Notes under the pieces: generated by a model | Database searches by the model: none | What the model saw: only the letters and a program-made list of their open reading frames with translations | Told to the model about the DNA's origin: nothing | Shown: positions 4,184 to 35,127 of the stretch, one piece after another | How the letters are laid out: each line of letters starts with the position of its first letter | Position numbering within the stretch: position 1 is the first letter of the stretch | IMG/VR virus record: IMGVR_UViG_3300020581_000002 | Coordinates: 3,247-67,246 of that record | DNA length: 64,000 nt | Strand: one strand, 5' to 3' | DNA from: a virus | Position numbers and translations under genes: made by a program

Positions 4184-5906
4184 AGTGCTTCCCTCCTCCC
4201 ACCTGCCGCAGCAACACCTTCTCGCCAACCTCGGGGTGCTCCTGCATGAGCTTCTGCATGAACTGCGCCTTCTCAGCCTTGCGCTCGCGCGCCGCGAGCT
4301 TGGCCGCCTCCTTGTTCGGGTAGTGCATGTTCTCGAGCACGTACTCGTCGTCCACGATCCCCGACTTGTGCGAAGCAAAAATAAGCTGCTCAGTCTCGCT
4401 CGCAAAGATCGGACTGGAGCTGTGACTATCCACCGTCACCCGCCAATCGTCAGGCAGCTCCGACAAGAGAAAGCGCGTCTCTTCACACGATTCAAACGTG
4501 TCGCCATTCGTCCAGTAGAACCGCCCATCCTTCGCCTCCATGATCGACAGCGTGAGATCGGCCGAATCGGCGCACTGCCGCTCCACTAAAAGAGAGCGAT
4601 CGCGCAGTGTCGGCGAAGCCGTCTTGACCAGCGTGTCGGCGTGCACGCCGGCCCGCACGCCAGGCTCGCCCTGCCCGCGCATGATCTCGGGAAACGACCC
4701 CAACTCGTTGATCTTTTGCTCAAGGTGCTGAATCATCGGCAACAGTTCGGACGGAAACTTGGGCGTCAAATCCTTGATGTCTGACCCTGCCCCTTGGTTC
4801 AAATAACCGGCGATCCGCGCCTGCGAGTACAACTCATCCGTCATCCCCGACTCACCAACGAACCCCAAAAACTTGTCTATCTGCTGCCCTATCAAACGTC
4901 GCGCGTCAGCGTACCACTCCGACAGCAAACCCTGCGGCTCAATCAAATCAGTCAGCTCGCTGCGCCCCCAAAACCAGTTCGTCACCTCGTTAGGCTGGAT
5001 TAGACGATAAGGCTGAAGCCGAGAATCCTTGATCAGCAAGTTCGCCCTAGCAAACCGCGGCGCGATGACGATGTCGGGATCGACTACGATGATAGTCGTG
5101 TAATCCTTCTCGTCCTGCACCCATAGCTCGTGGACCTTAACAACCGGCGCCATTACCTGCGGCCCCATGACCGCATAATTCGGATCGTTGCCAAGCTGTA
5201 CGATACCGCCCGGTGCCGGCTGCGTCGCCCCCTGAAGCCCAGTGTTTAGCTGCGACGCCGACAGAACCTGATGAAAGTAACTCGTCATATCCGACATCGA
5301 CGAACCGGTTGTCGCGTGCGCCTTGATGCGGTCGTAAAGCTTGTCCGCGTCCGGCATGTGCCAGATGCGCCGCCACACCTCGGCCAGCGTCATCACGGTC
5401 GTCTCGCACAGCGCGATCTGCTTATTGATGTCGTTCTCAGCCTCGTTGTAGACGCCGAATCGCCACGGCAACACGAGTTTCTGATAGTACCGCGGCGTCT
5501 CCTTCTCGCCCTCAACCTGCACAAACTGCTTGAGAATGGCAGCGCCGTACTTGAGCGCCTCGAACACGCCAAGACCGAACAGGAGGTCCGTGTTGCTACG
5601 ATCCCACTGGCGGGTCAGCACGCGCGCCGCCACCTTCGCCCGCTCCATCTCACGCTTGGGATAAAGGTTCTCGTAGTCCAAATCGAACTTAAGCTCCACG
5701 GGGCTGTAAAGATGCGCCGCCGACCGCTCCAGATGCTGGTGCATCATGTTGACGAGCGACTTGGTCCCGTCGTAACGCCCAGTTTCGGTGATTGCGTTGA
5801 GAAGCCGGCACTGCGCCTCGCGCGAAGCCGCACTCACGCGGCACTGCTCGATCGTCTCGTTGGCAAAAGCGAGCAGTGCGCGCTTCTCGGCGGGAACACG
5901 GAGCAT
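4182..5906 (-). CDS. Portal protein
   Basis: 574 aa downstream of the terminase; ALKYGAAILK, WFWGRSELTDLIEPQ, GSFPEIMRG segments resemble podovirus portals. Confidence 0.8.
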   Translation of the reverse strand: MLRVPAEKRALLAFANETIEQCRVSAASREAQCRLLNAITETGRYDGTKSLVNMMHQHLERSAAHLYSPVELKFDLDYENLYPKREMERAKVAARVLTRQWDRSNTDLLFGLGVFEALKYGAAILKQFVQVEGEKETPRYYQKLVLPWRFGVYNEAENDINKQIALCETTVMTLAEVWRRIWHMPDADKLYDRIKAHATTGSSMSDMTSYFHQVLSASQLNTGLQGATQPAPGGIVQLGNDPNYAVMGPQVMAPVVKVHELWVQDEKDYTTIIVVDPDIVIAPRFARANLLIKDSRLQPYRLIQPNEVTNWFWGRSELTDLIEPQGLLSEWYADARRLIGQQIDKFLGFVGESGMTDELYSQARIAGYLNQGAGSDIKDLTPKFPSELLPMIQHLEQKINELGSFPEIMRGQGEPGVRAGVHADTLVKTASPTLRDRSLLVERQCADSADLTLSIMEAKDGRFYWTNGDTFESCEETRFLLSELPDDWRVTVDSHSSSPIFASETEQLIFASHKSGIVDDEYVLENMHYPNKEAAKLAARERKAEKAQFMQKLMQEHPEVGEKVLLRQVGGGKH

Positions 5907-16286: not shown

Positions 16287-17356
16287 TACAATGCCTTTTT
16301 ACAATCAGATACCCAAGCAATAGCAAGTTCAACAATTCCCGTGGGCATCCAATAAAACTGTTGCAGTTCAGTATAAATCAACTGAACCATTGCTAGTAGC
16401 GGCGTGTCGCTTAGATGCAATTTACTAAGCCAATCAGCAAATTCTACTGTGTATTGCATTCCGAATAGTTCAGACTTCAAATCACTAACAAGATTATGTT
16501 CGTTTCTCTGTTGGAGCACAAAAGGACGACCGTAGTGAACAACCAATCCTTGCTCGCGCATAACTCTCTGCGCGATCAGCCCCGCCCATATGTCATCATA
16601 TCTTTGCCACTGCGGCACCATGAGGAAGCAGGGGGCAAGTGCACGCAAGAAAGCGACGTTCTGGGCGTTGAGCGGCGCCCACGTAGTGCGCGGGTCGGAG
16701 ACGACACCGGCGCGCAGCACCTCCGACACCTGGTGCACGGCCGGATGCCGCGACATGCGGTCAACAGCGGAGGTGTCGGGGTCACCCAGGACCGCGCCCT
16801 GCGCCACGCCGATACGCGCGTCAACGACGGGCTCGAAAGACAAGCAGGAAGGAAGCTGCTGCGGGAAGCCGCGCTGGCAGACGGGAGCGCCGGTAAGAGG
16901 AAATTGGAGCTGGCCGGGATCGAACCAGCCGCGACCGCTGACCTTTAACCCGCTCCACGCGCGATTCCACGTGATAGGCGGCGTGCTTGGATCGTCAAAA
17001 TAAACTTTGTCATCGAACATCTTAAAATAATTTATAAAATATGCAGCACCCATCGGGATGTTGTCGTCGTCCACACTGACGATCAGCTCGGCGCCCCACT
17101 TGAGCGCCTCGAGGAGCGCGATGTTGCGCCGCGCGATCGTATTCCAGCCGATGAGGGGGGAGCACTCCCAGCCCAACTCCTTCTGCCTGTCGGGCGAATA
17201 CGCTTCGCAGTCGGAGATGGATGCGCAAAAGTCGTAGGCGGCCTTGGGGGTCTTTTCGTCGCAAGCAACAAAAAAGCGAACGCTTGGGTCGAAGCGCCGG
17301 TAGAGCGCGAGAACGTGGGGGACATTGATTGTCGTGAGGATGAGAGCCGTCTTCAT
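16286..17356 (-). CDS. STELLO/RGP (GT75-related) glycosyltransferase-like protein
   Basis: TTINVP, ARRNIALLEA, VDDDN, RGFP, QG...GDPD..AVDR, PLNAQN, RYDDIW. Confidence 0.8.
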   Translation of the reverse strand: MKTALILTTINVPHVLALYRRFDPSVRFFVACDEKTPKAAYDFCASISDCEAYSPDRQKELGWECSPLIGWNTIARRNIALLEALKWGAELIVSVDDDNIPMGAAYFINYFKMFDDKVYFDDPSTPPITWNRAWSGLKVSGRGWFDPGQLQFPLTGAPVCQRGFPQQLPSCLSFEPVVDARIGVAQGAVLGDPDTSAVDRMSRHPAVHQVSEVLRAGVVSDPRTTWAPLNAQNVAFLRALAPCFLMVPQWQRYDDIWAGLIAQRVMREQGLVVHYGRPFVLQQRNEHNLVSDLKSELFGMQYTVEFADWLSKLHLSDTPLLAMVQLIYTELQQFYWMPTGIVELAIAWVSDCKKAL

Positions 17357-21726: not shown

Positions 21727-22868
21727 GCGCCAACGCTCGACCTTAACGGCTGCTTTAAGATAGCCGACAAGTCCGCGTCGTCCGCAGTCTTGGCCCACAC
21801 GGCCTTAAGCAATTCCCCGTCGCTCATTTCGAACAGCGTCGCGACGGCCTTCTCTTTCATCGCCGCGCCAGAACCGAATTGAGCGCTAAGAAACCTGCCC
21901 TCGCCTGGTGAGCCTGTCGAACCACCGCCCCGCGTCGAGCGATCGTGGTCAACGTAGCGCGTCACGGCGTTCAGCGCCGCCCACATTGTCTCGGGTTCCG
22001 TGCCCTCGCGCACGGTCGCGGCATACGCCTGGCCAAGTTCCTGGAACTGATTCAGCTTGCGCGTCGAGATATCCTTTTTCTCCGCGTCGAATGGGATCTC
22101 CAGCACAGTCTTGAAAAACTTGGAAACCTGCTCGCGGCTGACGTGCTGCTTGGCCATGGCGTCTCCCATCGCCTTGTACTGGTCGAAACCTTGCGCGATG
22201 CACGCAAGCTCCTTGCCGACGCGCACAGCATCAAACCGCGTGTTGTGCCTGGTCTTGACCACGGCGCGCTTGTCGCTCCCCAATGCCGCGTCAAGCGTGT
22301 TGTTGCACACGACGCGCGTCACGGTCCCCTTGTTGATCGTGGCGCCGGTCGCGTCGAACGTCGTCGTCATGAGAAGCCGCGCAACATGCTTGTCGCCGGC
22401 CACATCCATCCCGCCATTGAACGTCGCGGTTGCCCAGATGATTTCGCCCTGCTTAAGGCTGCCCGCAACATCGATCTGAAAACGCTCGTCCACGCTGATG
22501 TACTGCTTGAACCAATCAAGCAACTCCGCCGGCTGGTGCGGCTGGTAACGATCCGTAGCCGTCCCAAGCACGTGGCCATTATCGGACCGCACGATGTGGC
22601 GCACGCCGTCCACCATCGCGAGGCGCATATAACCGCTTTCCGTGATCCCGGTCTTAACGTCGAAAGCCGTGCCCCCTGCGATACCTTCCGGCAAGTGCAC
22701 ATAAGCCGCCGCCTTGACCGCATGCCAGTCGAGCCCAGCTGCCTTTGCCCAATCCTCGACACTCATGCCTTCCTTCATCTCTTGGCCGAGCTTATGCCAC
22801 ACGTCATCCCTACTCCCTAAAAACGCGATGTTGGCGCGACCGTTCGTCATGTCGATGTTGTGTGCCAT
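21723..22868 (-). CDS. DUF932 family (phage/plasmid-like TIGR03299) protein
   Basis: MAHNI..., WHKLG, AGLDW, RSDNG.VLG...RY.PHQP, AGSLKQG, TRVVCNNTL, T.WAALNAVTRYVDH. Confidence 0.88.
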   Translation of the reverse strand: MAHNIDMTNGRANIAFLGSRDDVWHKLGQEMKEGMSVEDWAKAAGLDWHAVKAAAYVHLPEGIAGGTAFDVKTGITESGYMRLAMVDGVRHIVRSDNGHVLGTATDRYQPHQPAELLDWFKQYISVDERFQIDVAGSLKQGEIIWATATFNGGMDVAGDKHVARLLMTTTFDATGATINKGTVTRVVCNNTLDAALGSDKRAVVKTRHNTRFDAVRVGKELACIAQGFDQYKAMGDAMAKQHVSREQVSKFFKTVLEIPFDAEKKDISTRKLNQFQELGQAYAATVREGTEPETMWAALNAVTRYVDHDRSTRGGGSTGSPGEGRFLSAQFGSGAAMKEKAVATLFEMSDGELLKAVWAKTADDADLSAILKQPLRSSVGA

Positions 22869-27697: not shown

Positions 27698-29594
27698 ATG
27701 CGCATAGTGGTCATAGACTTTTGAAAGTTTTTTCACCGGCGCCAAGGATGCGCGAGGCATTCCTTATAGCCTCACGCATCACTCGACCGAGAGCTACGTG
27801 CGTCACGAGTGGTTCGAGGCCCACGGTGCCGCAATTAAATGGTCCAAGGATACGCCTGCACGATGGTACGACGAGAGGCAGTTGCGGGAGGTGTTGAAGA
27901 GCAAGGACTGGTCGGATGTGTTTCTCCTTTCCCACCACGCGAATTTTGACCACCTCATACTATCTCACCACTACTCCGTGGCGCCTCGAATGTCCGGTTG
28001 CACGCTGTCCATGGCTCGGCTCCTGCTTGGCAATCATATCTCTGTCTCCCTCGATTCTGTCCGGCAGCAATTCGGTTTGCCCGTTAAGCGTACCCCGTAT
28101 CACCTTTTCAAGGGAAAGCGCTGGCGCGAGCTGAGCGATGAGATAAGGCAGCAGGTCGCTGACGGCGCTTGCGATGAGGCCGAATCGATCTGGACGCTAT
28201 TCGGGATACTCTCGAAACAGTTTCCGAGCGAAGAATATTCTGTCGTGGACACCACGATAAAAATGTTTACGCAGCCCGTGCTGCGCGCCGACACCGAGCT
28301 GCTTGCTGCCATTTGGGAGCGTGAGGAACGTGAAAAATCTAAGCGGCTTCTTGAACTGGGCGTTGCTGCTTCTGAGCTTCAGTCCAGCGATCGCTTTGCT
28401 GATTTGTTGCGAGCTGAGGGCATTGAACCTGAGACCAAAGAAGGACCGGAACGCAAGGACGGCTCGCGAGGAATAATCTACGCGTTCGCCAAGACCGACT
28501 ATTTCATGGAGGAATTGCTTGAGCACGAGAACCCGCGAGTTCGCGCCCTCGCCGAGGCTCGCATCGGCCAGAAGTCCACTCTCATGCAAACGCGCGCCGA
28601 GACGCTGGGCTGGATGGCAAGTCGGGGACCTCTGTGCGTTTATCTGCGCTACGCAGGCGCTCACACGACGAGATGGAGCGGAGGAGACAAGACGAACTTC
28701 CAGAACTTCAAGAAGCCCGATCCCGATCTCCCTCCAGACGAGAACCCAAATATCAGGGACGCGGTATTGGCGCCCGAGGGTTATGTCTTAATTAAGCCCG
28801 ACTGCTCGCAGATCGAATGCAGGCTGCTTAACTTTGTTGCCGGCCAGCACGACGTGATCGAGCGGTTCCGCAACGGCGAGGACCCTTACGTCAACGTCGC
28901 TTCGGCGTTCTATGGCTACCCCGTCAATAGGCTTGATCATCCGACCGAGCGCCAGTGCGGCAAGGTGCTTGAGTTGCAGGCAGGCTACGGCTCAGGCGGC
29001 GACAAGATCAGGCACACGCTGCGCGTCAAGACCAAAGGCAAGATATTGTTGATGCTGGAAGAAGGCATCAAGGCGCGCGACGCGTATCGCGACACTCATC
29101 CTGCGGTGGTCGATCTCTGGAAGCAAGGTGGCCGGATGCTGGCGCGTCTAGCCGGCGGGCCACCGACGACGTGGGGCCCGTGCGAGGTGCGCAACCATCG
29201 GATCGTTTTGCCCAATAAGACGGAACTTATCTACGACACTTTGGAATTTCACCGCCCCGAATCCGAGGAGGAAATCAAGACCGACTGGGATCGCGACGGT
29301 TGGTGGCGCTTGCGCACGCGGCGCGGCTGGACCAAGATGTACGGCGCGAAACTAGTGGAAAACCTGATCCAGGCCCTCGCGCGCGTTGTCGTGTCCCAGG
29401 CGATGATTCGCGTCGTGCAGATGGGTTACCGCGTGGTGAGCATGGAGCACGACTCGCTGTGGATTTTGATCCCGGAGCAGAATGCCAAAGAGCACGCCGA
29501 ACGCTGCCGGCTTGAGCTGTGCCGCGACGTGCCGTGGCTGCCGGGATTGCCGCTCGATGCGGAGGTGACGCTGGGAGAAAGGTATTCGAAATGA
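27698..29594 (+). CDS. Family A DNA polymerase with a +1 frameshift at 27719-27724
   Basis: AGGAGGT+ATG MRIVVIDF|ESFF (ExoI), HHANFD (ExoII), HTTRWSG, DCSQIECR (motif A), RQCGKVLELQAGYG (B), ENLIQA, EHDS (C). Confidence 0.9.
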
Positions 29595-29838: not shown

Positions 29839-30327
29839 ATGACTGACACCGCAGAGCTGATCGCGCGGCCGTGCCCGACGTGCGGCTACCAGATAGATCG
29901 TGTTGAGCGCCTTACCAACACGGTTGCCGCGCAGGCGCAGGAGATCGAGCGGAAGGAACTCAATCGGTTGCAGGCATGGGCGAGATGGGAAGTGTCACAG
30001 CGTCAGTGGGAGGCCGCCGAAGCCCGCGTGAGGGAGACAACGCAAGAATACAACGCGCTTATAGAAAGCGTGCGATCGCTGTGCAACGACGAAATTGAGA
30101 TCACGCCCGCGATGATCCGCGCGGGCGTCGAAGCTTTCAAGCCTTTTCTTTTTGAGTATTATCATATTTTTGATTCTGATCACCCGGAGATAGTTCGGGC
30201 GGTTTGGACGGCTATGTGTAAGGCAGTCAGTTATCAAGCTTTTGTTTCAAAGGCCGTCAAGACTTACCCGCAACCTTCCCTTCGACCACCCGGAGGCGCT
30301 CGTGAAGGCCAGGAAAATCCAACATGA
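29839..30327 (+). CDS. Mosaic member of the MTxTAELIAR family
   Basis: MTDTAELIAR, CPTC, AAQAQEIER, EAAEARVRE, ITPAMIRAG modules. Confidence 0.65.
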   Translation: MTDTAELIARPCPTCGYQIDRVERLTNTVAAQAQEIERKELNRLQAWARWEVSQRQWEAAEARVRETTQEYNALIESVRSLCNDEIEITPAMIRAGVEAFKPFLFEYYHIFDSDHPEIVRAVWTAMCKAVSYQAFVSKAVKTYPQPSLRPPGGAREGQENPT

Positions 30328-31028
30328 ACACGCTAGACGGCGTTCCCCCCTTCCTCGATCGCACGCGCCTCGTTGGCACGTACTCGATTCTCAATGCGTA
30401 TAAAAACTGCGCCCACCAGATGGCGCGACGCTATGTCATCAAGGACCAGCCTTTTATTGAAACGCCCGAGATGGCTTGGGGTAACAAAGTGCATTCCGCG
30501 ATGGAGCTGCGCGTGGGCGGCAAGAAGCCGCTGCCCGTTGATATGCAGCAGTGGGAACAGTTTTGCACGCCGTTCGACAATCACGAGGCGCAAGTCGAGC
30601 AGAAGCTGGGCGTCACATGGAACATGCGCCCCTGCGATTTCTGGGACAAAGAAGTTTGGTTCCGCGGCAAGATCGACGTGACGCTCGTGAACCGCAAAAC
30701 AGGCGAGATGTCCGCTTACATCGCGGACTGGAAAACTGGCGGCTCCAAGTACGAAGACCCGTTTGAGCTGGCGACCAACGCGGTCTTGCTCAAGGCGAAA
30801 TATTCGGGCTTGACAAAAATCTTTGGGTCATTTATCTGGCTCAAGGAGAATCGTGTTGGACAGCGTTTTGATCTGTCCGACGTGACTGCGACGTGGCAAG
30901 ATATAAAAAGACTGATAGATGAAATTGAGGAAAAAAAGAAAAGCGGACAGTGGGATAAGACCAAGAGCGGCTTATGCGGTTATTGTTCCGTTCGCGATTG
31001 CGAACATTGGTATGAGGCGCGAAAGTGA
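30324..31028 (+). CDS. PD-(D/E)XK exonuclease (RecB/Cas4-like, Cys cluster)
   Basis: YS.LNAYKNC, GNKVH, EQKL, RGKID, DWKTG, LCGYCSVRDC. Confidence 0.88.
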   Translation: MNTLDGVPPFLDRTRLVGTYSILNAYKNCAHQMARRYVIKDQPFIETPEMAWGNKVHSAMELRVGGKKPLPVDMQQWEQFCTPFDNHEAQVEQKLGVTWNMRPCDFWDKEVWFRGKIDVTLVNRKTGEMSAYIADWKTGGSKYEDPFELATNAVLLKAKYSGLTKIFGSFIWLKENRVGQRFDLSDVTATWQDIKRLIDEIEEKKKSGQWDKTKSGLCGYCSVRDCEHWYEARK

Positions 31029-31391
31029 AAGTTCCATTTTCTCTTGCGTATTTTGAAATCTCGTTTTAACTATGATCCGTTAACCGGTATCTGGACACGA
31101 GTCGGCAAAAACGGTTGGGGGCAAAGACGAAATAAAATAGGATACGTTACGTCAGATGGCTATTTACGAATAAATATTGACGGAAAACGTTATCTAGGTC
31201 ACGTCTTAGCGTGGTTTTACATGACGGGATGTTGGCCTAACAAGATCGTTGATCACAAAGATAATGTGCCGCAAAATATTAGATGGAATAATTTGCGGCT
31301 GGCTACGCGCTCACAAAACAGAACTAATTGCAAAATCGCATTCGTTGACGGCGGGACATCAGGAATTACCTACAACGGATCAAAAACGTAG
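31025..31391 (+). pseudogene. HNH endonuclease, apparently frameshifted near the start and lacking the AP2 tail
   Basis: YDPLTG, GHVLAWFYMTG, VDHKD...WNNLRLATRSQN; the GTG at 31025 needs +1 at TATTTTGAAA; ends soon after the HNH domain. Confidence 0.6.
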
Positions 31392-31420
31392 ACAGATTCG
31401 ATTGATTCTGCTAAGGAAAA

Positions 31421-31453
31421 GGCATCACCCGCATCGTTTCCGACACGGGTGAT
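31421..31453 (-). terminator. Terminator hairpin with GAAA tetraloop
   Basis: CATCACCCG/CGGGTGATG stem with G.U pairs on the minus strand, then CCTTTT. Confidence 0.55.
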
Positions 31454-31616
31454 GGGAGCCGAGGATCATAAGGTATGAGGGCCTCAGCCCTTACATCTTA
31501 TCTTAAGACGGCTTGCCACATGGGGTTCTCCTAACGCGGCTCGCGGGCCGCAAACTGGTGGCCTCGGTTGGCCAGAGGGTTCCTTTTCCAGGGATGGCCC
31601 TCTGACGGTGAAAAGG

Positions 31617-31686
31617 TGGAGGTAGTGGGACTCAAACCCACCGGCGGAACTTGATGAGGGTCCCCTCCGGCAAACCTGCTACCCCC
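31617..31686 (-). ncRNA. 70-nt atypical tRNA-like RNA
   Basis: Acceptor GGGGGTA/TACCTCC-A-CC(T) with G3.U70, T-arm GTGGG-TTTGAGT-CCCAC, GGGAC/GTTCC arm with central CAT; no proper D-stem. Confidence 0.55.
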
Positions 31687-31953
31687 TAGAACTTATGATG
31701 GCTCGGCTGTATCACCGGTCGGGCCATCATTGCGTTTGATCCTTTTGAACTTACCGCCAGATGTCTTACGCAGACATTGGAGGTAAACACATTCATTTAG
31801 GTTATTTTTCTTGTGCAAAAGTTGCGCATCTTGCTTATTGCAAAGCGGCGCATATCTATTTTGGCGAGTTTGCAAGAGTGTAAAAGTATGCCCGAATGGA
31901 CCATCCAAAAAATTCCACCCTATAAGCGCAACCGCTACCCGCGAGGACCGAGG

Positions 31954-32361
31954 ATGAAGACGCCGGAAGCAGTGGAGAAGGACGAGCTGAAGAATTATCT
32001 CGCCGGGATCGGCGCGTTCTACTTCCTCACCTTCGCTCCCGGCTTCGGCAAGTCGGGCCTGCCCGACATCGTGGCGTGCATTGCGAGAAGCAGTGAGAGG
32101 CCGAGTAGCGCCTTCATAGCGTGGCTGGATAGAAATAATCTTATGGGCATCGACGCGTTAAACAGCGCTTTCAACTGCGGTTACGCCACGGGTCAGCGCA
32201 GCGTCGGCGCATTCTGGGGGATCGAGGTCAAGCGCGAGGGCTTCGGACCGACTAAGATTCAAGAGGTACGAATGGAGGAAGTTAAGAGAGCGGGTGGCAT
32301 GACGGCGTGGGGAACGGCCGAGAAGGTGACAGGGGAGATCGAGGCGTGGAGAAAATCCTGA
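31954..32361 (+). CDS. VRR-NUC domain nuclease
   Basis: MKTPEAVEK...GFGKSGLPDIVAC...FWGIEVKR...PTKIQ...AGG, with an internal insertion. Confidence 0.85.
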   Translation: MKTPEAVEKDELKNYLAGIGAFYFLTFAPGFGKSGLPDIVACIARSSERPSSAFIAWLDRNNLMGIDALNSAFNCGYATGQRSVGAFWGIEVKREGFGPTKIQEVRMEEVKRAGGMTAWGTAEKVTGEIEAWRKS

Positions 32362-33527
32362 CGGGTGACTGTCGTGTGCTGCTCCGCGATCTCCCCGCCG
32401 AGTCGATTAACTGCGTGGTGACGAGCCCGCCCTATTGGGGTTTGCGGGATTATAAGATCGAACCGCTGCTGTGGGAAGACGGCTGGCGCGGTGTGCACGG
32501 ATTGGAACCAACAATTGAGCTTTACGTGCGCCACTCGATTGAGATTTTCCGCGAGATACGCCGCGTGTTGCGCTCTGATGGAACGCTTTGGCTTAATCTG
32601 GGTGACAGTTATGCAAGCGGCGGTCGCGGCGGCAACCCAACAGCCGATAGTTCCACCTTGCAAGGAACTTTATCGACGCAAGAAGCGTCTATGATACGCA
32701 GATCAATAAAGCCCCCCGACGGATTAAAACCAAAAGACCTGATTGGCGTTCCTTGGCGCGTTGCCTTTGCGCTCCAAGCTGACGGCTGGTACCTTCGCCA
32801 GGACATTATATGGCACAAGCCTAACCCTATGCCTGAGAGCGTTATTGATCGCTGCACCAAGGCGCACGAGTACCTATTTCTTTTTTCTAAAAGTGAACGC
32901 TACTATTTCGACGCTGAGGCGATTAAGGAACCTGCAGCGTGGAACTCGAAGCATACTAAGTTTCCCGACGGGTGGGACACAGGTACCGGCGGCCATGGCG
33001 CGTTCCATCGGGAAGGAAGAGAAAAGGGCAAGCGCGTGAACGGGGCGGCAAGCTGGAAAGGATCTGCGTTCGATGATCCGCGTGACTTGGAGGCGCATCC
33101 TGATACTGGTCGCGGTCCTCGTGCTGCCGGTAATAAGTCTCACAAGGGCGTGACTGAATACGAAGCTTCGGAAACCGAGGAGCATCGAACCAAGGTCGGG
33201 TTGATGAATATCGCCGAAACTGCCTACGAAACGCGCAACAAACGCTCTGTTTGGACCATTGCGAGCAAGCCATTCAAGGGCGCCCACTTCGCAACTTTCC
33301 CCCCCAAGCTTGTTGAGCCGTGCATCCTCGCCGGCTCGCCTCTCCACGGAATCGTGCTCGACCCATTTGCCGGCGCGGGAACGGTTGCCCTGGTAGCGCG
33401 TAATTTCGGCCGGCACTGCGTGCTGATGGAAATGAACCCTGAGTACGTGGTAATGGCCGAGCGGCGTCTTGCCGGTCTTCCCGTCGCGCCTCCCATTACC
33501 GAGCAGGCACATGCAGTTCTACCATGA
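32346..33527 (+). CDS. DNA amino-methyltransferase (N6_N4_Mtase, SPPY type, probably m4C)
   Basis: GDC, VVTSPPYWGLRDY, NLGDSY, IIWHKPNPMPES, HFATFP, LDPFAGAGT. Confidence 0.93.
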   Translation: MEKILTGDCRVLLRDLPAESINCVVTSPPYWGLRDYKIEPLLWEDGWRGVHGLEPTIELYVRHSIEIFREIRRVLRSDGTLWLNLGDSYASGGRGGNPTADSSTLQGTLSTQEASMIRRSIKPPDGLKPKDLIGVPWRVAFALQADGWYLRQDIIWHKPNPMPESVIDRCTKAHEYLFLFSKSERYYFDAEAIKEPAAWNSKHTKFPDGWDTGTGGHGAFHREGREKGKRVNGAASWKGSAFDDPRDLEAHPDTGRGPRAAGNKSHKGVTEYEASETEEHRTKVGLMNIAETAYETRNKRSVWTIASKPFKGAHFATFPPKLVEPCILAGSPLHGIVLDPFAGAGTVALVARNFGRHCVLMEMNPEYVVMAERRLAGLPVAPPITEQAHAVLP

Positions 33528-35127
33528 CGCCGCACGCAAACTTTTAATTTACGAGCGCCCCTCCCCGCTCGTCTCGCAGCACGTGCCCGAGGCCGTACAG
33601 GTCAACGGTCAATACGTCGCGGTGCCGCAGACGCTGCGCAACAGCCAGGTGCTGCGGTGGCTAGGGTATCCCGTGGCGCCAATCATGACCAACTACGATT
33701 GGCCGATCGGACCCGGCAAGGTGCCGGGAGCGCATCAGAAGCTCATGGCTAATTTCCAGCTCGTTCATCCCAAGTGCTTCAACCTCTCAGATCCCGGTAC
33801 GCAGAAAACGCTTCCCGCCCTGTGGGCCGCCGACTGGCTTATGAACCAGTTCCCGCCAGGCGAGTGCCGCTGCCTCATCGTGGGCCCGCTCAATGTGATC
33901 GAGACAGTGTGGGTAGACGAGATATGGTCGAACCTGCTTGGGCGGCGCACTTTCGAGGTGCTCTATGGCGACGAGCAGAAGCGACTGCGCCTCTTGGCGA
34001 AGAAACCAGACTTCGCGATCGTGAACATCGACGGCGTGGGGGTGGGGGCGCACACCTACCGCAGCGACCGCAAAATGCGCACCTCGGTACGGCTCGACGG
34101 CTTTTCGAAGGCACTAGCCGAGGACAAGAGCATAAAAATAATAATTGTGGACGAGGCCGACGGCTACGTCGATTCGCGCACAAAGCGTCATCACATCGCG
34201 CGCGAAATCTTCGGCTCGCGTCCCTATCTATGGATGATGACGGGTACACCCACGTCGCAACGCCCCAACGAGGCGTACGGAATAGCGAAGCTGGTTAACA
34301 ACGCCTTTGGCAAGTCGTACACCGGTTTTCGTGATGAAACCATGACCAAGATCGATCAGTTCAAGTGGGTCCCGAGGAAGGACGGTTACGAAAAGGCATT
34401 TCAGATTTTAACCCCCGCCGTGCGCTTCACGCTTGAGGAGATATGGCAGGACCGGCCTGCACTAAGTACAATTTTGCATGAGGTGGCGCTAACCGAGGAG
34501 CAGAAAAAAGCGGCGAGCGACCTCAAACGCACGCTTTTAATTCAACTGCAAGGCGGCAAGAAGCTGACGGTCGCTAACGAAGCGGTCGCGAGAGCGAAGC
34601 TCTTGCAGATTGTGCTCGGCGCCGTATACGATGACTTGCACAAAGTACATAAAATCGACGCCGAGCCGCGTTACCAGATGATTGAGGAGATAGTTGCGAA
34701 CGCAAAACACAAGGTTCTCATCTTTTGTCCCTTGACAAGCGTAGTCAACCTGCTGCATTATAGACTACAGAAGCGGTGGCGATGCGGGATCATCAATGGC
34801 CACGTGGCACCAAACGAGAGAATGGCGGTAATCAGGGCTTACCGCGACGAAGCGGACTTCAAAGTCATGGTGGTGGATGCGCAGAGCGTCAGCCACGGCA
34901 TTAATCAGTTCACGGTCGCGGACACGGTGGTATGGATGGTCCCGATCGACAAAACGCGGCTCTACATCCAAGGTAATAGAAGGGTTTACCGGCCGGGACA
35001 GAAGAACGACGTGACGGTGCATCGAATTACGGCGACGCCGCTGGAGAAGGAGATGTACCGGCGATTGGACACCAACACGAGCATGCAGGGCGCGCTCTTA
35101 AGCTGGATTAGGAGGGGAGAGATATGA
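33511..35127 (+). CDS. SNF2-family helicase
   Basis: LSDPGTQKT, VDEAD, MTGTP, HGIN...A, QGNRRVYRPGQK. Confidence 0.88.
   Translation: MQFYHDAARKLLIYERPSPLVSQHVPEAVQVNGQYVAVPQTLRNSQVLRWLGYPVAPIMTNYDWPIGPGKVPGAHQKLMANFQLVHPKCFNLSDPGTQKTLPALWAADWLMNQFPPGECRCLIVGPLNVIETVWVDEIWSNLLGRRTFEVLYGDEQKRLRLLAKKPDFAIVNIDGVGVGAHTYRSDRKMRTSVRLDGFSKALAEDKSIKIIIVDEADGYVDSRTKRHHIAREIFGSRPYLWMMTGTPTSQRPNEAYGIAKLVNNAFGKSYTGFRDETMTKIDQFKWVPRKDGYEKAFQILTPAVRFTLEEIWQDRPALSTILHEVALTEEQKKAASDLKRTLLIQLQGGKKLTVANEAVARAKLLQIVLGAVYDDLHKVHKIDAEPRYQMIEEIVANAKHKVLIFCPLTSVVNLLHYRLQKRWRCGIINGHVAPNERMAVIRAYRDEADFKVMVVDAQSVSHGINQFTVADTVVWMVPIDKTRLYIQGNRRVYRPGQKNDVTVHRITATPLEKEMYRRLDTNTSMQGALLSWIRRGEI

Follow-up and report, generated by a model that had tools for sequence, protein, structure and literature searches.

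What kind of RNA is encoded on the minus strand at positions 31617 to 31686 of the window analysed here, that is, of the whole 64,000-nt stretch corresponding to bases 3247-67246 of the 67,246-bp virus record IMGVR_UViG_3300020581_000002 (a soil phage with direct terminal repeats, judged complete)? A previous inspection of the letters (hereafter the sequence-only reading) had described there a minimal tRNA-like RNA with an alanine identity pair and a CAU loop, and had offered as explanations a mimic of a tRNA or of transfer-messenger RNA (tmRNA) that would serve as a decoy for anticodon nucleases, SmpB or EF-Tu, or a decayed tRNA. The reading that we favour, with a probability of about 0.5, is that a tRNA-like domain of alanine identity (hereafter the head) is joined to a rare-codon module of the CreT type, the two together forming a small RNA that would interfere with translation. 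As for the head, comparison of its homologues points firmly to a genuine, conserved and structured tRNA-like domain with an alanine identity set, belonging to a family of at least 32 loci in several bacterial phyla, plus one complete phage. The RNA unit of the window comprises the following features, where ORF stands for open reading frame and SD for Shine-Dalgarno sequence:

31617-31686, minus strand: tRNA-like domain (sequence, fold, covariance model, family covariation)
31615-31616, minus strand: encoded CC after the discriminator base (ACC after the acceptor in 21 of 27 members)
31571-31606, minus strand: hairpin GUCAGAGGG...CCCUCUGGC (sequence, fold of a 401-nt region; same sequence in L011 and L173)
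31528-31532, minus strand: SD AGGAG, 6 nt ahead of the AUG
31498-31521, minus strand: mini-ORF AUG UGG CAA GCC GUC UUA AGA UAA, coding for MWQAVLR and a stop (family alignment, codon rarity)
31476-31493, minus strand: stem-loop of 7 pairs after the mini-ORF (inverted repeat found on the plus strand; folds on the minus strand too)
31417-31454, minus strand: intrinsic-terminator-like hairpin of 14 pairs (31454-31423), then CCUUUUCC, a U tract (inverted-repeat scan)

The whole minus-strand unit is about 270 nt long (31686 to ~31417), with the tRNA-like domain as its 5' part and the mini-ORF 96 nt downstream of the discriminator base on the same strand.

Structure of the tRNA-like domain

Read on the minus strand from 31686 to 31617, the element has a 7-bp acceptor stem, GGGGGUA/UACCUCC (positions 1-7/66-72), in which G3 faces U70, the main identity element of alanyl-tRNA synthetase (AlaRS), with a discriminator A at 31617. 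Its T arm is GUGGG-UUUGAGU-CCCAC, with a stem of 5 bp, and its central arm, CCGG(AG)GGGAC-CCUCAUCAA-GUUCC(G)CCGG, is capped by a loop. The D stem is absent and a GG-containing, D-loop-like strand of 9 nt, GCAGGUUUG, is found in its place. The G3.U70 acceptor, the discriminator A, the 5-bp T arm and the lack of a D stem, all listed in the sequence-only reading, are borne out by the minus-strand sequence. No CCA is encoded, the ACC being followed by U. Set beside a canonical tRNA, the element has an acceptor of 7 bp that directly adjoins a T arm of 5 bp and 7 loop nucleotides, and neither the cloverleaf with a D stem nor recognition by tRNA detectors.

The checks proposed with ARAGORN at default settings and with Rfam models recognised nothing at the element: ARAGORN reported 0 genes, both for the window and for all 67,246 bp of the genome, and Rfam gave 0 matches in the window at gathering score, its single match at E≤10 being a tRNA-Sec (17.2 bits, E=2). 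At an 80% threshold, ARAGORN proposed a tRNA-Met(cat) in a shifted and poorer register, one of 64 such calls genome-wide; its "permuted tmRNA" calls at low threshold were discarded as artefacts of the lowered cut-off. The minimum free energy fold of the 73-mer is the proposed structure, with an ordinary energy (z=-0.73; 41 of 200 shuffles equally good). When the genome was scanned with a descriptor that asks for an acceptor of 7 bp, a T stem of 5 bp directly next to it and a loop TTNRANN, two matches came out; over 200 dinucleotide shuffles the average was 0.245, and 22% of the shuffles held one or more. The second of the two matches (22217-22293, minus strand) lies among long ORFs and is probably due to chance. 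These single-sequence statistics are not beyond chance, so that the reality of the element rests on its homologues and their covariation. With the covariance model R1 the element is the one strong match of the window, at 80.1 bits, beside a weak one at 16905-16956 (18.6 bits, E=0.15).

Homologues and covariation

The first 20 bases of the element have an exact match in 20 metagenome contigs, 17 of which hold the full architecture in 67-71 nt; the remaining loci, L016, L027 and L023, share the 20-mer only, have no T arm, score 22-23 bits with R1 and were set aside as unrelated. A degenerate 17-base pattern was found in at least 120 stretches of representative genomes; among the 120 matches listed, 13 have a perfect 7-bp acceptor and 5-bp T stem, 103 fail, and 4 pass a looser filter only and look like chance. 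These 13 genome loci belong to Alphaproteobacteria (Hyphomicrobiales, Rhizobiaceae and Stellaceae included), Myxococcota, Planctomycetota, Solirubrobacterales, Iamia and Chitinophagaceae, with one unclassified. Neither RF00005 nor ARAGORN calls the homologues.

Together with the window, 14 metagenome loci and 12 genome loci were aligned, which makes 27 sequences. Left out were L015, whose 3' end is degenerate, L026, L029 and L105, which are identical to L013, L018 and L022, and the three 20-mer-only loci. When scored for covariation over the acceptor, the central helix (P2) and the T arm, 93.0% of the paired cells are indeed paired vs. 79.6% in shuffles, and the covariation score is 0.367 vs. 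0.110, none of the 500 shuffles reaching the observed value in either case; controls with the partner slid by 1-3 columns gave 33-58% pairing. Both-side changes occur in all five T-stem pairs and in acceptor pairs 5-7, the acceptor and T stems being paired in 99.5 and 99.3% of cells, respectively. The covariation that the sequence-only reading had named as a check is therefore present in both stems; concerning the central helix, only its three outer pairs are firm.

G3.U70 is found in 27/27 aligned members and the discriminator A in 26/27; after the ACC that follows the acceptor in 21 members, the fourth base varies (A6/T5/C5/G5), and the T loop opens with UUC in 20 members. Positions 1-4 and 8-20 were fixed by the search patterns, which makes their invariance in this set uninformative; the patterns placed no constraint on U70, on the 3' strand or on the T arm. 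Members without the motif were also sought, with R1 and with a mini-ORF pattern. Five were found that lack the fixed motif in the tRNA-like part, with D-like strands GUAUGGCUA, GCAUAGUG, GAGGGCUGG, GCAGGUUCG and GCAGAUUAG, and all five have G3.U70 and A73. A sample of 150 genomes of the class gave L165 and L166, from 2 genomes, and a sample of 150 genomes of the order gave L176 and L177, again from 2 (alphaproteobacterial samples), a sporadic occurrence as expected for mobile DNA; the fifth, L175, is on a viral contig. In total, U70 is never C in 32/32 members, while neighbouring pairs drift. R1 found exactly one copy per genome in 5/5 host genomes, did not pick up their tRNA-Ala genes, and found no copy in the phage relatives.

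Among GenBank phages, blastn with 701 nt gave no match and the 70-mer only partial ones (E≥2); an exact 18-mer in Vibrio phage helene was rejected, as it has no T arm and scores 18.8 bits with R1. In IMG/VR, the exact 24-mer has 0 matches and the 17-base pattern has 2, both dismissed as chance (18.9 and 15.4 bits). No model of Rfam 15 reaches the family, and our literature search found no account of such a family or of tRNA-like RNA beside IS1/IS1595 transposases.

The central loop

Six members, those of the window, L011, L120, L095, L176 and L177, share the loop CCCUCAUCAAG. Other members have CCCUUACCAAG, CCCUAACCAAG or CCCUUAUAAG, with the triplets UAC, AAC or UAU instead of CAU, and the distant members L097, L103 and L143 have unrelated loops. 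Over the common form, C-C-C-U-N-A-N-C-A-A-G (window 31651-31661), only both N vary and the middle A is invariant. The loop resembles an anticodon loop (C-U-NNN-C-A), yet carries a pyrimidine (C) at position 37; it has 9 nt, or 7 nt with C.A closing, and departs from the U33 plus purine-37 signature of canonical tRNAs. The central arm is made of 4-5 bp, an internal loop and 5 bp, approximately the length of stacked D and anticodon stems. The CAU to which the sequence-only reading had drawn attention is present in the window and kept in the subfamily of six, not family-wide, and on this comparison of loops it is not a general anticodon of the family.

The downstream mini-ORF module

The sequence-only reading had seen no coding part; a conserved SD and a 7-codon mini-ORF on the same RNA unit contradict it. 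The 401-nt region around them folds better than shuffles on both strands (z=-4.99 on the minus strand, -3.95 on the plus strand), and the G.U pairs and the U tract make the structure fit the minus strand. When seven loci were aligned from head to terminator, the sole invariant block beyond the head was AUGUGGCAAG.C behind the SD. A scan with this block yielded four more viral contigs with the mini-ORF module, and AUGUGGCAAG is invariant behind the SD in the 11 loci. The 11 mini-ORFs encode MWQ(A/V) plus one or two codons; in 10 of them two consecutive codons are taken from UUA/UUG/AGA/AUA, with the stop at most two codons past the rare pair in eight of the ten. The mini-ORFs of L015, L174 and L011 continue 7, 5 and 29 codons beyond the pair, respectively, and that of L128 has one AGA, then the stop. 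In the 35 long ORFs of the phage itself, the two rare codons of the window mini-ORF, UUA and AGA, rank second and third in rarity among sense codons.

On the viral contig L175 the order is gene X (a gene of 150-200 aa, see below), tRNA-like head, mini-ORF module; in L174 no head was detected before the module. Head and mini-ORF are, to judge from these arrangements, separable modules that often travel together. A pairing of the D-like strand GGUUUGCC with GGCAAGCC in the mini-ORF (8-9 bp in pattern-selected members) was considered and dropped: in L175 the D-like strand differs and the mini-ORF sequence does not, hence there is no covariation in its favour.

CreT, the tRNA-sequestering mini-ORF RNA toxin of CreTA modules, is described as consisting of a strong SD, an AUG, two consecutive minor AGA/AUA codons and an essential downstream stem-loop (PMC8501985). 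By analogy with this design, the downstream module may be called CreT-like.

Contigs from RNA libraries

Twenty-four sequencing runs were listed with part of 31400-31800, and 21 of them are soil metatranscriptomes from different studies, a ratio that is no measure since the listing reserves places for RNA. Three RNA runs from three studies (X1, X2 and X8) and one probable DNA run (X18) were aligned to the window. The whole contigs span 31436-31690 in X1 (255 nt, 254/255 identical), 31436-31688 in X2 and 31436-31671 in X8. The sole difference in each of them is at 31614, where the plus strand has G in the soil RNA and DNA contigs and A in the phage, the tail being ACCC instead of the phage ACCU; the DNA run has this difference too. 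In two runs the RNA contigs start within 2-4 nt of G1. In all three they end at 31436, with no loose end, and the DNA contig (31335-31467) passes through this point; a contig end inside the terminator is a weak hint of an RNA 3' end. Shorter contigs, 90-95% alike, cover only 31501-31539 (SD and mini-ORF) and 31615-31646 (T arm), segments that are conserved at the core of related copies. None of the three RNA runs covers the window beyond 31436 on the left or beyond 31690 on the right, which is not evidence either way.

Context in bacterial mobile DNA

By its neighbouring sequences, the family resides on mobile DNA of soil bacteria, beside IS1/IS1595 transposases, gene X, tRNA genes and recombinases. 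Upstream of the element, three contexts were met: a sigma-70-like promoter, recognised by eye (e.g. TTGACC-17-TATAAT in L018), with a long A-tract/U-tract hairpin; the stop codon of gene X; or a tRNA (L109). Gene X matches no Pfam family in 6/6 copies, and in the protein atlas it gave hypothetical clusters only at 0.89 and weak HARE-HTH/RNase R winged-helix leads at 0.81.

Downstream, a conserved leader of ~230 nt is followed by an IS1-family transposase gene, identified by Pfam in L018, L024, L105 and L128 and by tblastn in L064, L084 and L128; for L021 and L166 the assignment is a reading of the sequence. IS1595 transposases were identified by Pfam in L017 and L095, and by their N-terminal sequence in L011 and L025. 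Other downstream contexts are the mini-ORF unit, real tRNAs at 5-12 nt (L012, L013 and L026), a convergent small gene, putatively ribbon-helix-helix-like by reading (L084, L086 and L109), and a plain terminator (L143). That the transposase belongs to a multicopy insertion sequence carrying the RNA was rejected, the IS1-like gene being in single or low copy in four genomes and the RNA in single copy.

Three further observations concern these neighbours. The leader in L018, L022, L024, L064 and L105 contains GGAUUGCCCC twice, the second time immediately before the start codon, and has the partly complementary GGGACAAUUCC in between, which looks like a translational switch by alternative pairing. 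Odd tRNAs stand beside L013 (1408-1491), L026 (214-297), L022 (1187-1283) and L173 (3775-3871); three kinds occur, a tRNA of 84-85 nt that combines a long variable arm with a UUG anticodon (Gln by ARAGORN), one whose anticodon call has four bases (ttgg) and a 97-nt long-arm Arg(cct). In L166, a second tRNA-shaped sequence (1572-1650) comes right after the element, then the leader and the IS1-like transposase gene; with gene X upstream, the order gene X, tRNA-like RNA, transposase recurs in this distant member.

The phage locus and the origin of the copy

The nearest GenBank polymerases to that of the phage are from Rhizobium phages (31.6% identity). Around the RNA unit, the window contains:

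27798-29594, plus strand: family A DNA polymerase
30324-31028, plus strand: PD-(D/E)XK exonuclease
31029-31887: whole insertion, i.e. HNH gene, RNA block and 112 nt (alignment with L004 and L005)
31044-31391, plus strand: HNH endonuclease (HNH_3; Pfam 6.3e-15, PHROG 99 8.7e-33)
31335-31775: captured block, i.e. RNA unit and truncated 3' ends of two flanking genes (blastn to L011)
31813 (listed start, GTG) or 31888 (true start, ATG), plus strand: 182-aa ORF after the HNH gene
32307-33527, plus strand: N6/N4 DNA methylase
33469-35127, plus strand: SNF2 helicase

The two closest 67-kb relatives (L002/L005 and L003/L004), with flanking-gene proteins 87-92% identical, have the exonuclease gene, then ~10 or ~100 bp, then a gene starting with MPEW. 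In the window, ~860 extra bases lie between the exonuclease gene and the next gene, made up of the HNH gene and 496 noncoding bases, and this noncoding part has no blastn match in the loci or the whole records of the relatives. By the relatives, the GTG start at 31813 is an artefact, the extension 31813-31887 falling in inserted DNA. The site is empty in L004, and in L005 (IMGVR_UViG_3300021559_000009) it holds a different insert of ~100 bp (4720-4790); it looks like an insertion hotspot. Seen by eye, the L005 insert opens with a Cys-rich, zinc-ribbon-like short frame. A group I intron was rejected as an explanation, with 15 nt only upstream of the HNH ORF, an intergenic insertion and no Rfam match. 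The HNH relatives L008 and L009 (49 and 42% identity) have no similar RNA.

The captured block is 78% identical to the metagenome contig L011 over 445 aligned columns. On the left, the junction of the recombination falls at 31335: from there to 31391, the final 18 codons of the HNH ORF (..AFVDGGTSGITYNGSKT) are the 3' end of a convergent XRE-type gene of the donor, whose counterpart in L011 (ORF 315-551) ends in IDFVDGKTSGITYRGSKT. The block also holds the last 26 codons of gene X, 19/26 of which are identical to L011 (E=3e-9). The X18 DNA contig departs from the window exactly at 31335, and its next 18 bases match L011 at 17/18, so that a copy at least 99% identical exists in soil DNA with a bacterial-type, not phage, flank. 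By these sequences, the acquisition of the block by the phage is recent.

Proposed mode of action

If head and module act together, as we favour, RNase P would cut the transcript at G1, the head thereby providing a stable and defined 5' end. In the head, a capped helix takes the place in which D and anticodon stems would stack. Once the 3' end of the head were freed and completed to CCA, AlaRS could charge it through G3.U70, and lacking a usable anticodon it might act like the tRNA-like domain (TLD) of tmRNA, engaging EF-Tu and the ribosome-rescue machinery. The CreT-like mini-ORF would meanwhile load ribosomes on consecutive rare codons and tie up rare tRNAs and ribosomes. To our knowledge, non-decoding tRNA-like domains with alanine identity are known almost only from tmRNA. 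A bolder version, which we put forward tentatively and think rather improbable, is that head and mini-ORF are two halves of one new mobile-element RNA acting on stalled ribosomes, the alanine-charged head, which lacks an anticodon and would be set free from the common transcript, competing there with tmRNA or replacing it. Equally speculative is its corollary, in which the mini-ORF would park ribosomes and rare tRNAs on UUA, AGA and AUA pairs and the RNA would be an outside-in relative of tmRNA, with which transposons and phages would throttle or exploit translation in the host.

Several observations weigh against an active, charged RNA of this kind. No promoter-like site was found on the minus strand of the window, which together with the truncated upstream gene means that the phage copy may be silent. 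The RNA-library contigs probably stem, by their sequence, from a non-phage carrier and not from this phage; they give no strand, ends or levels, and RNA libraries may hold DNA. They also bridge the 3' end of the tRNA-like domain, i.e. no free CCA end is seen, and a terminal A is encoded in only 6/27 members. The window subfamily has a UUU T loop, with U for C at the third position. In L173, a 97-nt tRNA (ARAGORN Arg(cct)) occupies the place of the head before the mini-ORF module, and an ordinary-looking tRNA in this position suggests a generic tRNA-shaped 5' module. As for the likeness to tmRNA, the tmRNA model RF00023 has no match in the window at E≤10 and gives member L143 24.5 bits, for a cut-off of 47 and with ordinary tRNAs at 30-43 bits in the same search; the positive control, the TLD-only tmRNA of phage DS6A, reaches 43.2 bits with RF00023 (gathering score 47) and 20.4 bits with R1. 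The UCGAC...GGAC motifs of the host-tmRNA type are absent, which leaves SmpB binding without sequence support, and the phage genome has no smpB profile match.

Alternative explanations

Two alternatives concern what the element does where it is found. The block could be an inert passenger of this phage, co-captured with an HNH homing-endonuclease cassette by illegitimate recombination, an account that we take seriously while judging it doubtful. It would explain why the block is missing from both close relatives, why both donor flanking genes are truncated, one being fused to the HNH ORF, and why a soil copy at least 99% identical has non-phage flanks, in line with a very recent acquisition; the lack of a minus-strand promoter-like site and the 0/2 true members among the IMG/VR pattern matches go the same way. 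The RNA unit is whole from G1 to the terminator, however, while its surroundings are cut, and four other viral contigs match the mini-ORF pattern, of which one carries a tRNA-like head as well and another a tRNA. Somewhat less probable still is a cis-acting, tRNA-shaped module for processing or stability, at which RNase P (perhaps with other tRNA enzymes) would cut a polycistronic mobile-element transcript with no aminoacylation. Such a cut would separate the upstream gene from the downstream RNA and leave a protected, structured 5' end, and the element does lie 0-12 nt past the stop of gene X, or after a promoter and hairpin, directly ahead of tRNAs, transposase leaders or the mini-ORF unit. 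The real tRNA in its place in L173 fits this, as do the RNA contigs that begin 2-4 nt from G1 in two runs and continue through the 3' end, a point weakened by the fact that contigs cannot show RNA ends or levels. The CC after the discriminator is conserved and the A is not, and CC at this place disfavours cutting by RNase Z. RNase P requires neither G3.U70 nor A73. In 32/32 members, however, position 70 is U and not the more stable C, and a G3.U70 unbroken while neighbouring pairs drift argues against a mere processing signal.

The remaining alternatives concern the class of the head. A true tmRNA without coding sequence (CDS), a TLD-only ssrA like that of DS6A, which would bind SmpB and block or divert trans-translation, agrees with the architecture (~70 nt, GGGG start, G3.U70, A73, a helix, then the T arm) and has the precedent of DS6A, a similar TLD-only molecule having inhibited tmRNA (PMC4131195, PMC11915505). 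We consider it improbable: RF00023 recognises the DS6A form and not the window element, the tmRNAs of the host genomes are normal and unlike the element in the sequences of acceptor and D-analog, a motif for contact with SmpB is not apparent, and the main text of the census counts only 9 unique "standard, no CDS" sequences, its supplements being where such forms might be listed (PMC11915505). A working alanine tRNA without D arm, decoding through the central loop and placing alanine at non-alanine codons, has very little in its favour: within CCCU.A.CAAG only the triplet varies, the central arm has about the right length, and AlaRS is known to ignore anticodons; against this stand the pyrimidine at 37, the unpaired closing C.A, a middle A whose invariance is more like a motif than a free anticodon, the unrelated loops of L097, L103 and L143 and the lack of a D arm. 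Finally, a decayed tRNA-Met/Ile2 pseudogene, an att-site remnant or a chance fold, the first two of which the sequence-only reading had kept in view, might be argued from the lowered-threshold tRNA-Met(cat) call and from the unremarkable single-sequence statistics. Against it, the element is conserved in several phyla and compensatory changes affect every T-stem pair and three pairs of the acceptor; CAU gives way to UAC, AAC or UAU elsewhere, and ARAGORN makes 64 such calls in the genome. The presence of both acceptor strands, unlike in an att copy, and a phage genome with no integrase profile match also speak against it; as far as sequence evidence goes, this reading is refuted.

Were the RNA charged and active, as in the translation-interfering reading, mobile elements and phages would possess a small RNA device directed at the stalling and rescue of ribosomes. 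Were it a processing module only, genome annotation would still gain a new class of structured RNA. The family is a separate one with the logic of a tmRNA TLD, often joined to a CreT-type mini-ORF and present in many soil RNA libraries.

Comparison with known systems

With canonical tRNA-Ala and alanine minihelices, the family shares G1-C72, G2-C71, G3.U70, A73, the 5-bp T stem and a 7-nt loop of the UUC type in 20/27 members, whereas it has neither a D stem nor a tRNA-type anticodon loop. tRNA-like processing signals at RNA junctions exist elsewhere, e.g. mascRNA-type elements and tRNA punctuation, and resemble the present case in that a tRNA-shaped element stands between functional RNAs in one transcript; mascRNA-type signals need no aminoacylation identity, whereas G3.U70 is invariant here. 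Concerning the insertion, free-standing HNH homing-endonuclease cassettes likewise place an HNH_3 gene between conserved genes and are missing in close relatives; unlike them, this one carries 441 bp of foreign, RNA-coding DNA and its endonuclease ORF ends in borrowed codons.

The module downstream of the head resembles CreT in its strong SD (AGGAG-N6-AUG), few codons, consecutive minor pair (here UUA/UUG too) and stop, and in the stable stem-loops downstream of the mini-ORF (31493-31476 and 31454-31423). It differs in the four conserved leading codons (MWQA/V) before the rare pair and in its fusion to a tRNA-like domain on the 5' side. A CRISPR-like CreA partner was not seen, no search for degenerate repeats or cas genes having been made.

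As regards tmRNA, the element has G3.U70 and A73 like the rest of the family (G3.U70 in 27/27 + 5/5, A73 in 26/27 + 5/5); there is no tag reading frame between the halves of the domain, which are separated by a 9-nt loop only. Ordinary tmRNA genes stand elsewhere in the host genomes (4/5 over the RF00023 cut-off, 4/5 over that of RF01849), and these genes have other acceptor stems than the element, and GG(Y/A)U(Y)(Y)GAC motifs where it has GGUUUGCC. Recent derivation from a host tmRNA was rejected, as acceptor and D-analog sequences differ, and so was a permuted or two-piece tmRNA, the halves being in standard order. In G006, the genome of L084, two 67-68-nt sub-threshold RF00023 matches (C1:4185957-4186023 and 4191579-4191646; 22.5 and 24 bits) are found at a distance of 7-12 kb from the true tmRNA gene (4178743-4179111); they may represent additional elements of a tRNA-like or TLD-like kind, or pieces of island ends. 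The resemblance to a tmRNA TLD noticed in the sequence-only reading holds for the architecture (no D stem, a helix for the anticodon arm, the alanine pair) and fails for membership, RF00023 being silent: the element has the TLD architecture and, by this one sequence test, is not a member.

Among the closest parallels is the gene of mycobacteriophage DS6A. This phage carries a TLD-only tmRNA, and expression of a similar molecule in E. coli had a strong inhibitory effect on tmRNA, for which titration of SmpB is a possible cause (Hudson et al. 2014, PMC4131195). CDS-less tmRNAs of roughly 65 bp are also described in plastids and jakobid mitochondria (PMC4131195, PMC11915505), and the main text of the 2025 census gives nine unique "standard, no CDS" sequences, the plastid forms being ~65 bp (Nawrocki et al. 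2025, PMC11915505). We located the DS6A gene at 28478-28560 of JN698994 (L170), between gp33 and the DNA pol III gene; the record leaves it unannotated. Both the DS6A RNA and the window element are phage-borne, ~70-83 nt long, start with GGGG, have G3.U70, A73 and a T arm, and show no D stem and no anticodon, with a loop-capped helix between the halves. They differ in that the D-analog of the window, GCAGGUUUG, is not of the ..GGU.GUCGAC type, with no GCAC/GGAC before the T stem, that a separate SD-driven mini-ORF lies outside the tRNA-like domain, and that the present family is found mainly in bacterial mobile DNA, beside transposases.

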